Shown here: positions 7,312-11,622 of the stretch, piece by piece
How positions within the stretch are numbered: the first letter of the stretch is position 1
Layout of the letters: every line of letters starts with the position of its first letter
Source: a virus
Length of the DNA stretch: 64,000 nt
Direction: 5' to 3' (one strand)
IMG/VR virus record: IMGVR_UViG_3300042291_000957
Coordinates: 1 to 64,000 of that record
Translations under genes and position numbers: made by a program
Notes under the pieces: model-generated
What the model was told of the DNA's origin: nothing
The model's database searches: none
Seen by the model: only the letters and a program-made list of their open reading frames with translations

Positions 7312-7944
7312 ATGCCTAATTGGTGTTCAAATCATATCACAGTGCGTGGCACTGATCCTGCGGCAATCAAGCGATTAGCCGATGCATTTGACAACGGTGA
7401 GTTCTGCGGTACAGTAGTGCCTATGCCAGAAGAACTCAACATTACATCAGGCTCGTTGGGTGATCCTGTAGAACAGGCTGAACTAGAGGCCAAGAGTGCG
7501 GCCAACTTAGAGAAACATGGATTCGCTAACTGGTATGACTTCAATGTGGCCAAGTGGGGAACCAAGTGGGAGATCGGCGGCAACGGTGATGTTGCAGAGA
7601 TTGATGTGGATGGCTTGAGCTTCTCTGCACCCTTTGAAAGTGCCTGGAGCCCACCCATTGGTGTATGTGAAGCATTGGCTGAACAGGGCTTCGACGTCAC
7701 CCTTTACTACTACGAACCCGGCATGGGCTTTGTGGGCAAGTGGGAAGATGGTTTTGATGACTACTACGAATATGCAGGCGAGAACTCCAAGACTGTGAGA
7801 GCCGCTATTGGTGATGAGCTAGACGATATGTTTGGCATCAGTGAGTCAATGGCTGAATACGAAGCAGAGAATGAAGAAGAGGAAGAACTCACCGAATGGC
7901 TCAAGGATGGCATTGACAAAAAAGCTCAGTTGGTTGCATTATGA
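7312..7944 (+). CDS. DUF1281/YubB-like (ferredoxin-like fold) protein
   Basis: MPNWCSN start; WYDFNVAKWGTKWE, FESAWSPP and YYEPGMGFVG motifs. Confidence 0.75.
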   Translation: MPNWCSNHITVRGTDPAAIKRLADAFDNGEFCGTVVPMPEELNITSGSLGDPVEQAELEAKSAANLEKHGFANWYDFNVAKWGTKWEIGGNGDVAEIDVDGLSFSAPFESAWSPPIGVCEALAEQGFDVTLYYYEPGMGFVGKWEDGFDDYYEYAGENSKTVRAAIGDELDDMFGISESMAEYEAENEEEEELTEWLKDGIDKKAQLVAL

Positions 7945-8859: not shown

Positions 8860-8892
8860 AGAGACCCTACTAACACTAGGGTCTCTTTTTTT
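8860..8892 (+). terminator. Rho-independent terminator containing CCCT-N9-AGGG
   Basis: AGAGACCCTA...TAGGGTCTCT followed by a T run. Confidence 0.8.
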
Positions 8893-8952
8893 GGTTGACA
8901 TTTTGGACATTGTGCGTTATAATAACAGCTTACACACACAAAAGGACACACA

Positions 8953-9204
8953 ATGTTTACAAATTGCATAGCATACGCAAAGCTAGTTTACAACAAAAAA
9001 CTAAAAGCATACAAAGTACAATTTGCTTTTAACGTACACAAAAAGTTAGTAGGCACTGACTACAAATATATATTTCCTGTGCAAAGCAAATGCAACTATG
9101 TTAGTGGGGACTTACTTGCAGACAACTTGCAAAACGAGGTGCAACGCACTGTGGCATCTGCGCAACAAAGTTTGCGTACTACAAACATAGTATTTGTTGA
9201 CTAA
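8953..9204 (+). CDS. hypothetical protein (TC/CC-free island gene 1)
   Basis: promoter 8895-8923, RBS AAGGA. Confidence 0.75.
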   Translation: MFTNCIAYAKLVYNKKLKAYKVQFAFNVHKKLVGTDYKYIFPVQSKCNYVSGDLLADNLQNEVQRTVASAQQSLRTTNIVFVD

Positions 9205-9282
9205 ACTGTAGGGTTATACATAGCGCATTTGACATTTTGGACAAAGTGCGCTATAATAACAACTTAGCAACAAAGGAACACA

Positions 9283-9426
9283 ATGCAAAATACTAAAAGC
9301 AAATTAGACAGTTTAATGTTACAGTTACAAGCAGTGCTAGAACAAGCAGGACTAGACGAACACGAGCGCATACAAAATGCTTTTAATGCACTTGCAATAG
9401 AACTAGACGACACAATTATAGCATAA
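9283..9426 (+). CDS. 47-aa helical peptide (island gene 2; not in ORF track)
   Basis: promoter 9229-9257, RBS AAGGA; MQNTKSKLDSLMLQLQAVLEQAGLDEHERIQNAFNALAIELDDTIIA. Confidence 0.7.
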   Translation: MQNTKSKLDSLMLQLQAVLEQAGLDEHERIQNAFNALAIELDDTIIA

Positions 9427-9513
9427 CACTACAGCGCATAGGGTTATTGCGCACACACTTGACATTTTGGACAGTGTGTGCTATAATTAACACTTAGCAA
9501 CAAAGGAGTGTGT

Positions 9514-9735
9514 ATGCAAGTAGAAGTAGTGGACATTGAGGCGGATGGTTTTTACAAAGACGCTAATGTTAGCGGCAACTGCGTAAAGGTTACACTGCGC
9601 AAAGGCACAGAGGTTGCAAGCTGTAGGCAGATACTTATTTGGGATGAGGAGTACGCAGAGGACTGCTTTGAGGACTGGAAGGACTGCGCACTTGCAGGCG
9701 AAGAGGGATACACTTACACAGAAGGAGCGATATGA
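9514..9735 (+). CDS. acidic small protein (island gene 3)
   Basis: promoter 9459-9487, RBS AAGGAG; 17 D/E vs 6 K/R. Confidence 0.75.
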   Translation: MQVEVVDIEADGFYKDANVSGNCVKVTLRKGTEVASCRQILIWDEEYAEDCFEDWKDCALAGEEGYTYTEGAI

Positions 9736-9914
9736 AGACAGTTTTTGTAGTGCAAGCACAGGGCTTTGGAGATGACGAGGACGCTTTTGAGAACATTGCG
9801 GCGTTTAGTACACTGGCTCTGGCAGACGCACACATTGCGGAACTGCAAGCACAGGACGCAGAGGAAGACAACGAGTTTGTATACAATGTGGACGCAATAA
9901 CCCTGCAGGCCTAA
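9732..9914 (+). CDS. very acidic small protein (island gene 4)
   Basis: RBS AAGGAG, ATGA overlap; 13 D/E vs 1 K. Confidence 0.75.
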   Translation: MKTVFVVQAQGFGDDEDAFENIAAFSTLALADAHIAELQAQDAEEDNEFVYNVDAITLQA

Positions 9915-9986
9915 GGGCCTTTATATTTTGGTTGACAGATTGGCTAAAGTGCGCTATAATTAACACTTAGCAACAAAGGACGTACA

Positions 9987-10325
9987 ATGTACAAAGTTAA
10001 CGCAACACTAAACACAAACGGCAACGGCTATTGGAGCAGGACTGTAGCGGCTGTAGAGATTACACGACTGCAACTTGCGTACACTAACGACGAGTTGGAC
10101 TTTGGCGAACTGCGTGTTTATTTTAACACTGCAACTTGGGATGTAAACAAGCAGGGGCTTATATACACAGACAAGCAGTTTATGCGAGAGCTTAAAGAAC
10201 TGTTAACTAGCAAGGGCTTTGACGCTAGCGATGTAAGCTACAGCGAGCAGGGAATGCAAGGGGACAATTACGTTAGCTGTGACGTTGGCGAGCGTTTTAT
10301 TAATACGTTTATGCAACAGGCATAA
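9987..10325 (+). CDS. hypothetical protein (island gene 5)
   Basis: promoter 9932-9960, RBS AAGGA; GLIYTDKQF and YSEQGMQGDNYVSCD motifs. Confidence 0.8.
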   Translation: MYKVNATLNTNGNGYWSRTVAAVEITRLQLAYTNDELDFGELRVYFNTATWDVNKQGLIYTDKQFMRELKELLTSKGFDASDVSYSEQGMQGDNYVSCDVGERFINTFMQQA

Positions 10326-10418
10326 CAATAGGGGTGTAGGCCCCGCTGCTTAACGCCGGTTGACAGCTAGCCAAAACCCTGCTATAATACATTTACACTA
10401 ACACACTTTGGAGCCAAG

Positions 10419-11385: not shown

Positions 11386-11622
11386 ATGACATACAAAAAC
11401 ATAGACAACATATTGCAGTGGACAGGTGCCGTGGCCATTGTGCTGGGACACGCCTTCAACGCCATGGGACCAGTGATGTATCCTTGGAACATCATTGTGT
11501 TTGCCATAGGAACTGTGATGTTTTTGCTGTGGGCTCTGCGAGTAGGCAATCGGCCACAGCTGATGGTCAACGTGGTTTCGTTGGCCATAGGTATTTTGGG
11601 TCTTGTCAAGGCTATCAGTTGA
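11386..11622 (+). CDS. small polytopic membrane protein
   Basis: three hydrophobic segments; ATG follows TATAAT (11374-11379) after 6 nt, no RBS. Confidence 0.7.
   Translation: MTYKNIDNILQWTGAVAIVLGHAFNAMGPVMYPWNIIVFAIGTVMFLLWALRVGNRPQLMVNVVSLAIGILGLVKAIS

Follow-up and report, generated by a model that had tools for sequence, protein, structure and literature searches.

A strand-bound near-absence of TC and CC in early-gene cassettes of a lake jumbo phage

We report that 1455 bp of early genes (8886-10340, + strand; here the island) are nearly devoid of the dinucleotides TC and CC (together YC). The island lies in the window, i.e. the whole 64,000-nucleotide stretch of DNA that was analysed, which belongs to an uncultured lake jumbo T4-type myovirus (Mimasvirus-like). 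The purge is strand-, gene- and transcript-bound and is kept by purifying selection. A near-complete ban on a dinucleotide class that is paid for in protein sequence is among the cleanest footprints of a molecular reader. In our best reading, to which we give a probability of roughly one in three, the reader is the host termination factor Rho and the island carries Rho-proof messages.

The island is best explained as a set of immediate-early cassettes with host sigma70 promoters, strong ribosome sites and tiny orphan proteins, situated within the phage's hyperplastic early region. Its parts, and the elements that border it, are as follows.

8860..8892, + strand: intrinsic terminator of the upstream gene, with a 10-bp stem (8860-8886) and a T7 tail; the last YC before the island is at 8884
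8895..8923, + strand: promoter P1, TTGACA-17-TATAAT, 12/12 matches, YC-free
8953..9204, + strand: g1, 83 aa, basic (pI 9.5), with a conserved FP(V/T)Q..C.YVSGD motif
9229..9257, + strand: promoter P2, 12/12 matches, YC-free
9283..9426, + strand: g2, 47 aa, acidic, helical, zero YC
9459..9487, + strand: promoter P3, 12/12 matches, extended -10 TG, YC-free
9514..9735, + strand: g3, 73 aa, acidic (pI 4.05), zero YC
9732..9914, + strand: g4, 60 aa, very acidic (13 D+E, 1 K+R), overlapping the g3 stop
9907..9930, + strand: intrinsic terminator, AGGCC-TAAG-GGCCT and a T-rich tail, holding two of the five CC (9910, 9918)
9932..9960, + strand: promoter P4, 12/12 matches, YC-free
9987..10325, + strand: g5, 112 aa, zero YC
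10331..10344, + strand: 3' boundary; the first YC after the island is at 10341, where a GGGG-N6-CCCC hairpin has its CCCC arm, 16 nt past the g5 stop

The four 12/12 sigma70 promoters of the island share spacer sequence, and upstream of P2 lies a stem-loop relic, TAGGGTTAT, which has lost its C-rich 5' arm. Three of the eight residual YC are in g1, namely those of TTT-CCT (an invariant Phe-Pro) and the one at 9157. In g4 they comprise 9818 and the terminator-stem CCs within the last codons, while the CCs at 9901 and 9902 lie just upstream of the terminator in the CCCT arm of a CCCT-N9-AGGG dyad. YC is at normal levels in the next promoter after the island (10360-10388) and in the gene behind it. 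On the + strand, 28 promoter-like sites were counted in the early region (1-21.5 kb), and 20-odd neighbouring cassettes have equally perfect promoters, yet are unpurged. That these are first-needed genes, as originally predicted, is supported by the perfect sigma70 promoters in front of the cassettes, which speak for first expression; moreover, the island is covered by contigs assembled from lake metatranscriptomes, which weakly suggests its expression.

None of g1-g5 had a match in Pfam or PHROGs, and in the ESM Atlas they matched only unnamed viral clusters. AlphaFold2 (AF2) models were obtained for g5 (pLDDT 94.8) and g1 (pLDDT 89.0), and these gave no convincing match in the PDB (Foldseek E ≥0.19, VIA Z ≤5.2), which is no proof of new folds. 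In the Pfam, PHROG and fold searches no known inhibitor resembled any of g1-g5. The most widespread island family is g5, with 121 relatives in IMG/VR.

Recounting gave three TC (9075, 9157 and 9818) and five CC (9076, 9901, 9902, 9910 and 9918) in the island, a list identical to that of the original prediction, and base composition leads to an expectation of 64 TC and 49 CC (approximately 113 YC against the 8 observed), in line with the predicted order of 100. On the same strand GA (86 vs 118 expected) and GG (80 vs 84 expected) are near normal, so the effect is strand-specific, as had been claimed. AC (148 vs 90 expected) and GC (111 vs 64 expected) are both enriched, which shows that C as such is tolerated and is avoided only after a pyrimidine; TT is in excess (128 vs 84 expected). 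The YC-free runs measure 661 bp (9157-9818), 423 bp (9918-10341) and 191 bp (8884-9075), the first two agreeing with the approximately 660 and 420 bp of the original prediction, and the longest such run outside the island in the 64-kb window is 128 bp. When all 16 dinucleotides were scanned in 300-bp windows along the full 90.4-kb contig, TC or CC fell below 0.2 of expectation nowhere but in the island, and the only other low windows concern CG (three, at 14.6-15.8 kb) and GA (one, at 73.8 kb). TC (0.27 of normal) and CC (0.24) are purged equally whatever the flanking bases, GCC being the least purged CC context. The antisense RNA of the island would carry 166 YC, compared with 8 on the sense RNA. 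Purine content is 56-61% in the island units and 45-64% in neighbouring units, and C content 17-21% and 18-27%, respectively, C being kept in the RC context; T makes up 24% of the island compared with a genome mean of 32%.

The depletion goes beyond codon composition. When the five island proteins were recoded with the synonymous codon usage of 27 other early ORFs, 66.8 ± 7.0 YC resulted (minimum 45 in 2000 draws) as against the 7 observed. At codon junctions there are 3 YC, compared with 27.3 ± 3.5 when the order of each gene's own codons is shuffled (0 of 5000 shuffles reached 3), and the non-coding DNA of the island has one YC in 319 bp, so that the predicted purge of junctions and intergenic DNA is borne out. 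A codon- or tRNA-level cause such as an anticodon nuclease was rejected, since the purge is no weaker at junctions and in non-coding DNA than within codons. The proteins are reshaped as had been noted: one Pro in 375 residues (12.5 expected), AGY for 14 of 15 Ser codons and TTT for all 19 Phe codons.

Selection rather than mutation is indicated by the replacements found, by the intact ORFs and by the absence of newly created YC. Of the positions that are YC in relatives, only 28% are YT in the window (unpolarised spectrum); the remaining replacements are changes of the 5' pyrimidine to a purine, of C to A or G, or of Ser TCN to AGY at conserved Ser columns, and the 5' pyrimidine has changed as often as YT has arisen. 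YC-free g5 alleles differ from one another at 38-96 nucleotides with zero YC created (P = 2e-5 to 8e-12), YC-free alleles with 71-89% DNA identity all remain at zero YC, and the five island ORFs are conserved and intact, with neither stop codons nor decay. The earlier claim that selection keeps these genes YC-free is supported by the divergence without new YC, by the substitution spectrum and by the recoding and shuffling results.

Phages of this group are very abundant in lakes, and more than 8000 homologues of one of their proteins were found. Eighteen DNA runs each contain 74% or more of the words sampled from the stretch. At the nucleotide level the island and its flanks had no match among 50,697 phage records, near and distant. 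Close relatives have exactly one island, and three large relatives have at most one each; among approximately 90 loci no purged stretch exceeds approximately 1.5 kb. The purge follows the sense strand in at least 14 small early-gene families, including a g1-like gene in the opposite orientation, and a purged stretch on the antisense strand was never found across the relatives' loci examined. The order of g1-g5 differs in the relatives L042, L038, L075 and L089, some contigs are without the g2 or g4 cassette, and a membrane-protein gene next to the cassettes is partly purged when inside an island. Homologues of g5 in IMG/VR form a gradient from zero YC up to expectation, many relatives showing a stable partial depletion (4-14 YC in g5), and close sisters differ (4 of 29 expected in L047, 21 of 37 in L075). 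Deep-branching homologues have normal YC, so the purge is a derived state. No island was found in the cultured kin XbC2 and GAP32, at the g5-like locus of Xanthomonas phage X1 or in the complete lake relative G003.

Several observations suggest that selection probably acts at the level of the RNA. In the relatives L075, L008, L083, L009 and L061, YC is present in the terminator and the promoter spacer and is gone from about -10/+1. Promoter cores upstream of purged bodies have 0.46 YC compared with 1.55 in other promoters, and the purged gene bodies have approximately 5% of the expected YC. Residual YC are predicted to be paired with a probability of 0.76, compared with 0.62 for relocated controls (p = 2e-6), and of the five CC, four are found within or next to the g4 terminator dyad (two of them in the stem). 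Since residual YC favour predicted RNA helices, the reader would appear to be single-strand specific. The purge tolerates hairpins, and a need for unstructured RNA was rejected as the main cause because the island folds only slightly more weakly (-0.14 to -0.26 vs -0.19 to -0.36 kcal/mol per nt). The onset at -10/+1, the YC in helices and the purge of all YC contexts lean towards one option of the original prediction, an effector on single-stranded DNA or RNA that recognises TC/CC, with RNA as its more probable target. Residual YC along g5 showed no 3' bias and did not separate the readings.

The Rho reading would work as follows. Rho has six primary binding clefts, each of which takes up one UC or CC of naked nascent RNA, so a message without YC would give Rho no loading (rut) site and could be transcribed to its end even when no ribosomes are close behind the polymerase, as might be the case at the very start of infection or when the host is slow, starved or blocked in translation; selection on the transcript would then have cleared these messages of all exposed 5'-pyrimidine-C-3' steps. 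The primary binding site of Rho is specific for 5'-YC (PMC12360218), Rho binds "up to six CC or UC dinucleotides" (PMC13323073), and in bacteria whose RNA polymerase outruns the ribosomes, entire genomes are shaped by avoiding Rho through their base composition (PMC13323073). Silencing of phage and foreign transcription by Rho is described in PMC3526286. With TC and CC purged equally in any context and AC and GC enriched, the motif fits this specificity. The dose fits as well: 65% of 80-nt sense windows outside the island have at least six YC, compared with none inside, where 76% have zero. The nearest cultured kin infect Xanthomonas, Pectobacterium, Cronobacter, Agrobacterium and Vibrio. These hosts are Proteobacteria, which possess Rho, and we count this in favour.

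Against Rho stands its near-universality, given that XbC2, GAP32 and G003 are without an island, and the 20-odd neighbouring perfect-promoter cassettes that are unpurged. Moreover, a near-absolute, site-by-site ban exceeds the need of a factor that requires several YC, C content and the C-versus-G balance are only mildly shifted, and the missing 3' bias in g5 and the lability of the trait between close relatives also count against it. For the partial purge of the membrane-protein gene inside islands a cis-acting cut or block is simpler. If the Rho reading is right, the island would provide the first natural messages composed so that Rho overlooks them, and phages would counter silencing by Rho through sequence in addition to antiterminator proteins. 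The bacterial "purine code" would then extend to viruses, and the messages would offer a design rule for Rho-proof synthetic genes.

There is somewhat less than an even chance that the ban is instead the negative image of an undescribed site-by-site reader, either a YC-specific mRNA effector or a hypermodification of guanine in GA/GG that stops the polymerase. With that same likelihood the at least 14 YC-free families would be antidotes or bootstrapping factors needed before all else. The island would then be a direct lead to an enzyme with a new specificity and to a reservoir of new counter-defence proteins. If the reader is not Rho, the island gives its recognition motif before the enzyme is known and flags small early proteins as likely counter-measures.

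Taken singly, the first of these, which we regard as unlikely, is an effector that attacks YC in single-stranded RNA site by site, i.e. a host-defence endoribonuclease or RNA-modifying enzyme or a phage shut-off enzyme; the island genes, on a footing just as doubtful, would be antidotes or first-needed factors that stay translatable while other messages are hit. A site-by-site reader accounts for the near-absolute ban and its cost in protein sequence, and since one cut exposes the whole RNA, also for the partly purged, co-transcribed membrane-protein gene. A variable repertoire of host defences fits the lability and the absence from cultured kin, the difference between L047 and L075 being what an arms race against a variable host factor would produce. 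The genes themselves are anti-defence-like (tiny, orphan, mostly acidic early cassettes, at least 14 families), and the -10/+1 onset and paired residual YC support such an effector equally. On the other hand, an agent hitting every YC would strike all other phage messages too, none of g1-g5 resembles a known inhibitor, and the partial depletion in g5 of many relatives would be of little help unless cleavage per site is rare. We know of no enzyme with YC specificity on RNA. A precedent for dinucleotide-specific attack on mRNA exists in CmdT, which ADP-ribosylates GA in the single-stranded mRNA of T-even phages (PMC11618068).

The second, which we hold to be rather improbable, is that the phage marks guanine in GA/GG (7-deazaguanine-type or other) and that the mark on the template strand slows or blocks host RNA polymerase. 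By the same rather long odds the island would be a "launch pad", a mark-free template whose first genes can be read from incoming virion DNA. The ban does equal an absence of GA/GG on the template that starts where templated synthesis starts, and stalling of the polymerase would affect the entire unit in cis. Motif-specific guanine modification is real, as shown by preQ0 at GA and GGC in phage CAjan (PMC7544227). The near-complete relative G001 encodes FolE, QueD, a radical SAM enzyme resembling QueE and an ORF with weak similarity to QueC; beside these it has a purine phosphoribosyltransferase and an ORF resembling an HhH-GPD glycosylase. However, FolE and QueD are also present in the island-less G003, and no preQ0 pathway gene was found in the 90-kb contig. 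No TGT/DpdA-family gene was found in the six clade genomes G000-G005: PF01702 (TGT) had no match there and matched 14 of 14 control genomes, although 75% of G000 is missing, and an enzyme encoded in that part, or a very divergent one, could escape. A disguised DpdA beside FolE in G001 was considered and rejected, because this 367-aa neighbour had no PADLOC or PDB sequence match and has many homologues without a TGT domain, some sources calling it a glycosyltransferase. Neither G000 nor G001 was found to have a C5-methyltransferase or a member of the thymidylate-synthase (dCMP-hydroxymethylase) family. CC is purged in every context and least in GCC, which does not resemble the GA and GGC of CAjan; four template GG lie in or beside the dyad at the end of g4 (two in its last codons), and GA/GG persists on the template strand of all other early genes, which are read from that incoming DNA too. 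To our knowledge, 7-deazaguanine and other major-groove modifications (such as the glucosyl-hmC of T4) are not known to stop RNA polymerase. The original prediction of a hypermodified base keeps the preQ0-type genes of G001 on its side and has the lack of DpdA and the FolE/QueD of G003 against it, and the link that it drew to modification genes at 24-50 kb was not upheld: the ORFs there (sugar-nucleotide enzymes, glycosyltransferases, methyltransferases, a 2OG oxygenase and a carbamoyltransferase) are glycan enzymes interleaved with replication genes.

We consider it very unlikely that a host APOBEC-like TC/CC-specific cytosine deaminase acts on the displaced, single-stranded non-template strand of strongly transcribed units, leaving a footprint of mutation and selection. 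APOBEC3 enzymes prefer the YC context, the purge is on the non-template strand from the transcription start, the TT excess (128 vs 84) would be in keeping, and any gene brought into the unit would be affected as well. This is countered by the low share of YT (28%), with the 5' pyrimidine changed equally often and conserved Ser moved from TCN to AGY, by the T content below the genome mean, by five conserved ORFs without stops or decay and by equally strong neighbouring promoters that show no effect; we know of no bacterial APOBEC-like defence of this kind. Least credible of all is that the cassettes have no present function in this respect and were imported from a globally YC-biased donor, their signature now decaying: cassette mobility and the g5 gradient from zero to expectation would suit it, but it is already contradicted by 71-89% identical alleles that are all still at zero, and the 1.5-kb limit among approximately 90 loci, the single island at most in each of three large relatives, the normal deep-branching homologues (the purge being derived) and a resident gene family that becomes purged once inside an island also stand against it. 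Avoidance of restriction sites or other duplex words, including the palindrome removal already judged weak in the original prediction, was rejected, since selection against a duplex word should deplete both strands, yet 86 GA and 80 GG remain on the + strand; avoidance of UV photoproducts was dismissed in view of the TT enrichment and of the abundant dipyrimidines on the template strand.

Comparison with known systems places the island among several phenomena. Viruses of eukaryotes suppress CpG in response to ZAP and UpA in response to RNase L, and APOBEC3 leaves TC/CC footprints. As would hold for the island, a host two-letter single-strand reader drives recoding there, junctions and synonymous positions included; the resulting depletion extends over the genome and is incomplete (observed/expected about 0.3-0.8), whereas the phage island is local, strand-bound and nearly complete. 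The phage DNA that enters first (the early regions of T7 and T5) avoids restriction sites, and ACA-less mRNAs resist MazF. Here too, a nuclease finds no target in early or essential genes, but restriction-site avoidance affects both duplex strands alike and involves words of 4-6 bp, compared with one strand and a two-letter step in the island, and ACA-less messages are engineered or anecdotal and concern a 3-nt word.

The PeSL cassettes of T4-type phages (PMC2839356, PMC4122927) are likewise small orphan early genes in terminator and sigma70 promoter modules within a hyperplastic region, and the island shares both their modular build (four 12/12 promoters, stem-loops at 8860 and 9907) and their shuffling, given that cassette order and presence vary between relatives. 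The PeSL papers describe shuffling and no compositional ban (PMC2839356, PMC4122927), and in contrast to PeSL the stem-loops inside the island have lost their C-rich arm. The CAjan DpdA system (PMC7544227) targets guanine followed by a purine, the complement of TC/CC, and preQ0 genes occur in a close relative of our phage; in the island clade, however, no DpdA/TGT was detected, all CC rather than preferentially GCC is banned, and only one strand is affected. CmdTAC (PMC11618068) is a bacterial defence that acts dinucleotide-specifically on mRNA and blocks translation, but its motif GA is common in the island messages (86 copies) and no escape by recoding has been described.

Finally, rut sites and the avoidance of Rho (PMC13323073, PMC12360218; for YC-dimer descriptors PMC6144790) share with the island the steps UC/CC and the sense RNA. 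The logic is also shared with bacterial Rho avoidance, in which the coding strand blocks Rho loading when ribosomes lag and the antisense is YC-rich. In bacteria, however, this amounts to a mild genome-wide skew (54% vs 46% purine), while in the phage it is near-absolute over approximately 1.5 kb, and unlike the bacterial purine bias the island is enriched in RC rather than depleted of C and is surrounded by unpurged neighbours, its cultured relatives being unpurged as well.

The 1455-bp island at 8886-10340, which carries five early genes (g1-g5), is almost free of YC (TC or CC) on its sense strand. The original prediction counted three TC (9075, 9157, 9818) and five CC (9076, 9901, 9902, 9910, 9918), and our count agrees exactly; base composition predicts 64 and 49, respectively. 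GA (86) and GG (80) are ordinary on the same + strand, as expected for a strand-specific effect, and AC (148 vs. 90 expected) and GC (111 vs. 64) are enriched, so C itself is tolerated and avoided only after a pyrimidine. YC-free runs in the island reach 661, 423 and 191 bp, the longest elsewhere in the window being 128 bp. When all sixteen dinucleotides were scanned across the 90.4-kb contig, TC or CC depletion was confined to windows inside the island; the rest of the contig yielded just a handful of isolated windows poor in CG or GA. The features of the island are as follows.

Features of the island (positions in the window)
8860-8892, intrinsic terminator of the upstream gene, left limit of the island
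8895, 9229, 9459 and 9932, four promoters, all perfect (TTGACA-17-TATAAT)
8953-9204, g1, basic product
9283-9426, g2, acidic product
9514-9735, g3, acidic product
9732-9914, g4, acidic product
9907-9930, internal terminator, the sole one in the island
9987-10325, g5, acidic product
6 nt past the g5 stop, GGGG-N6-CCCC hairpin, right limit of the island

The leader is similar at all four promoters and the spacer near-identical in three of them; the ribosome sites of g1-g5 are AAGGA/GGAG. YC returns in the CCCC arm of the right-hand hairpin, 16 nt past the g5 stop. As anticipated, some exceptions look forced: four of the five CC lie in or beside the dyad of the 9907-9930 terminator (two in the stem), and the invariant Phe-Pro of g1 dictates another two of the eight residual YC. 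The usual CCC...GGG stem-loop is reduced to its G-rich 3' arm (TAGGGTTAT) at two places that separate YC-free cassettes, 9210-9218 and 9441-9449; the full hairpin, e.g. CAGCCC-GTAA-GGGCTT, is present at island borders of relatives. The ban thus seems to have cost the island its internal terminators, in which case the island should form one read-through unit. Lake metatranscriptome contigs bridging 9217-9451 and 9722-9950 reveal variants without the g2 or the g4 cassette, with break points inside the repeated promoter modules, as recombination of the PeSL (promoter-early stem-loop) type would predict. No Pfam or PHROG family matched the g1-g5 proteins, and the confident AlphaFold models of g5 (pLDDT 94.8) and g1 (pLDDT 89.0) gave no convincing PDB match.

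Amino-acid or codon composition does not account for the depletion. Recoding the g1-g5 proteins with synonymous codons at the frequencies seen in 27 other early ORFs gave 66.8 +/- 7.0 YC (minimum 45 in 2000 draws), compared with seven observed. Codon junctions hold three YC, compared with 27.3 +/- 3.5 when each gene's own codons were shuffled in order (as few in 0 of 5000 shuffles), and the 319 non-coding bases hold one. The predicted protein cost is borne out, with one Pro in 375 residues (12.5 expected), AGY for 14 of 15 Ser and TTT for all 19 Phe. Moreover, C-ending codons are favoured after a purine at 8953-10325 (GAC 25:GAT 5, TAC 14:TAT 4, GGC 10:GGT 1, AGC 10:AGT 4), while the same pairs are near parity in other early genes; the bias either makes up for the lost C or constitutes a second signal (a highly expressed codon set or RT avoidance).

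The contig, an IMG/VR virus record, is 25% complete by the CheckV estimate. Its UvsX-like recombinase shares 64-68% identity with those of XbC2, CBB, GAP32 (genus Mimasvirus), Atu_ph07 and Phosso, which are T4-type jumbo myoviruses of 350-490 kb infecting Proteobacteria; contigs of IMG/VR relatives reach 524 kb, and many lake-water metagenomes contain the phage's DNA. IMG/VR contains 121 relatives of the g5 protein. The depletion recurs among them, many loci containing purged stretches of at most about 1.5 kb, on the sense strand in every case and never on the antisense strand. A single island is present in the whole genome of G001, a close relative (353 kb, 98% complete), and one in G002 (280 kb), whereas none was found in the more distant complete lake phage G003 or in cultured XbC2 and GAP32. 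The g1-g5 genes are depleted at any location and in any order (loci L042, L038, L075, L089), and in a g1-like gene of reversed orientation the depletion follows its own sense strand; the genes flanking g1-g5 (up1, up2, dn1, dn2) have YC at expectation throughout. Just upstream of the island, the early ORF at 7312-7944 encodes a DUF1281_C/Api92-like ferredoxin-like domain, of a family that occurs in plasmid leading regions, and has normal YC. In total, 42 distinct small YC-free proteins fall into 14 families (about 90 loci). In the g5 tree the deep clades are normal (22-36 YC vs. 22-29 expected), and depletion, to anywhere from 0 to 14 YC, affects at least two or three clades; two sister sequences have 4 vs. 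29 expected (L047) and 21 vs. 37 (L075). Judged from sequence comparison, the purge is a derived state and a selected trait, tied to gene and transcript.

Selection rather than mutational bias is what the alignments show to have produced the purge, because of the replacement spectrum, the intact ORFs and the diverged alleles. Of the positions at which relatives carry YC, only 28% read YT in the window; replacement of the 5' pyrimidine by a purine, or of C by A/G, is equally frequent. At five conserved serines, the TCN codons of some homologues correspond to AGY in purged ones, and no ORF is disrupted, all five being conserved. The g5 alleles entirely devoid of YC, four in number, differ pairwise at 38-96 nucleotides; a random single change creates YC in a quarter of cases, and zero YC among them has P = 2e-5 to 8e-12. 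TC and CC are equally purged in all flanking contexts, GCC least. A deaminase footprint is accordingly very improbable and a decaying signature of foreign origin scarcely credible, both being contradicted by the 28% YT and the YC-free diverged alleles.

If the word were read in duplex DNA, both strands would lack it; the reader therefore sees a single strand, which is either the RNA or the strand under transcription. Five left borders, independent of one another (L075, L008, L083, L009, L061), still have YC in the terminator and promoter spacer, and there YC end at about -10/+1. Across all promoters, untranscribed cores have 0.46 YC before purged bodies vs. 1.55 before normal ones, and purged bodies retain about 5% of the expected YC. 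In predicted folds of the sense RNA, pairing is commoner for residual YC than for YC relocated to randomly chosen RC sites (0.76 vs. 0.62, p = 2e-6), although many of the residual YC belong to homologous terminator hairpins, so that the loci do not count as independent in this test. A family of small membrane proteins with two or three helices and a conserved N(K/R)PQ motif is informative here.

Members of the membrane-protein family
11389-11622 of the window
6803-7024 of L042
6365-6586 of L077
897-1115 of L008
4408-4626 of L047

In the window and 17 relatives, 18 loci in all, the gene has normal YC, while it has 2 YC vs. 14 expected in L042 and about half of the expected number in L077, L008 and L047, and these four copies sit within or directly behind an island. 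Hence the transcription unit is under the pressure, not just particular proteins, and the purge extends to anything co-transcribed. Lake metatranscriptome contigs cover the island, which is compatible with its expression but a weak sign of it. We consider it rather probable that the reader, whatever its kind, acts on RNA.

To our knowledge, Rho is the only bacterial factor with exactly YC specificity, and it is our best reading, with a probability of about 0.35. Each primary binding cleft of Rho takes one 5'-YC dinucleotide, and a loading site comprises up to six interspersed UC/CC (PMC12360218; PMC13323073); 80-nt sense windows with at least six YC make up 65% outside the island and none inside, and antisense RNA of the island would carry 166 YC. 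Composition-based escape from Rho was recently shown to mould the coding strands of bacteria whose polymerase runs ahead of the ribosomes (PMC13323073). However, Rho is near-universal, yet the island is limited to one lake clade and the purge to a few of about 25 early units with equally good promoters; the ban is stricter than a multi-site binder should require, the trait is labile among close relatives and the residual sites lack 3' bias.

An as yet undescribed effector acting on mRNA at YC would account better than Rho for the clade and unit restriction, the strictness, the lability and the missing 3' bias, but we know of no such effector and regard it as a doubtful candidate. The existence of dinucleotide-specific mRNA enzymes is shown by CmdT, whose target for modification is GA in the single-stranded mRNA that T-even phages produce (PMC11618068).

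The explanation favoured by the original prediction, a modified G at GA/GG of the template strand, we hold to be unlikely. Motif-specific deazaguanine exists in phage CAjan, at GA and GGC (PMC7544227), and G001 encodes FolE, QueD, a QueE-like and a weak QueC-like gene; but the context pattern of the island does not match GA+GGC, no DpdA/TGT-family gene was found in six genomes of the clade, no C5-methyltransferase or hydroxymethylase family was found in the two genomes tested, and G003, which lacks an island, has FolE and QueD as well. Nor do we know of any base of the deazaguanine type that halts RNA polymerase. The "modification genes at 24-50 kb" proved to be of another kind, interleaved with replication genes.

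Gene sets considered for modification
24199-50387 (-) of the window, sugar-nucleotide/glycan set: UDP-GlcNAc 2-epimerase, 4,6-dehydratase, RmlD-like reductase, GT2 and GT8 glycosyltransferases, methyltransferases, 2OG oxygenase, carbamoyltransferase, nucleotidyltransferase-cupin
7127-14346 of L100 (G001:140001-160000), G001:97715-98128 and G001:71437-71634, pathway genes of G001: FolE, QueE-like radical SAM gene, QueD/PTPS, weak QueC-like ORF

Adjoining FolE in G001 are a purine phosphoribosyltransferase, an HhH-GPD glycosylase-like ORF and a 367-aa glycosyltransferase-like protein of a very abundant type (>8000 homologues). The glycan set of the window may act on virion proteins, DNA or the host surface, and the G001 set could be a deazapurine pathway serving DNA, tRNA or the nucleotide pool.

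A literature search found no published counterpart in phages to a compositional ban like that of the island. Its gene organisation matches that of the PeSL cassettes of T4-type phages, including shuffling and presence/absence variants (PMC2839356, PMC4122927). The ban itself is nearest in kind to the purine code by which bacteria evade Rho and to the suppression of CpG, UpA or TC in eukaryotic viruses, and we group it with these as motif avoidance that evades a factor reading single-stranded nucleic acid, in this instance perhaps Rho.
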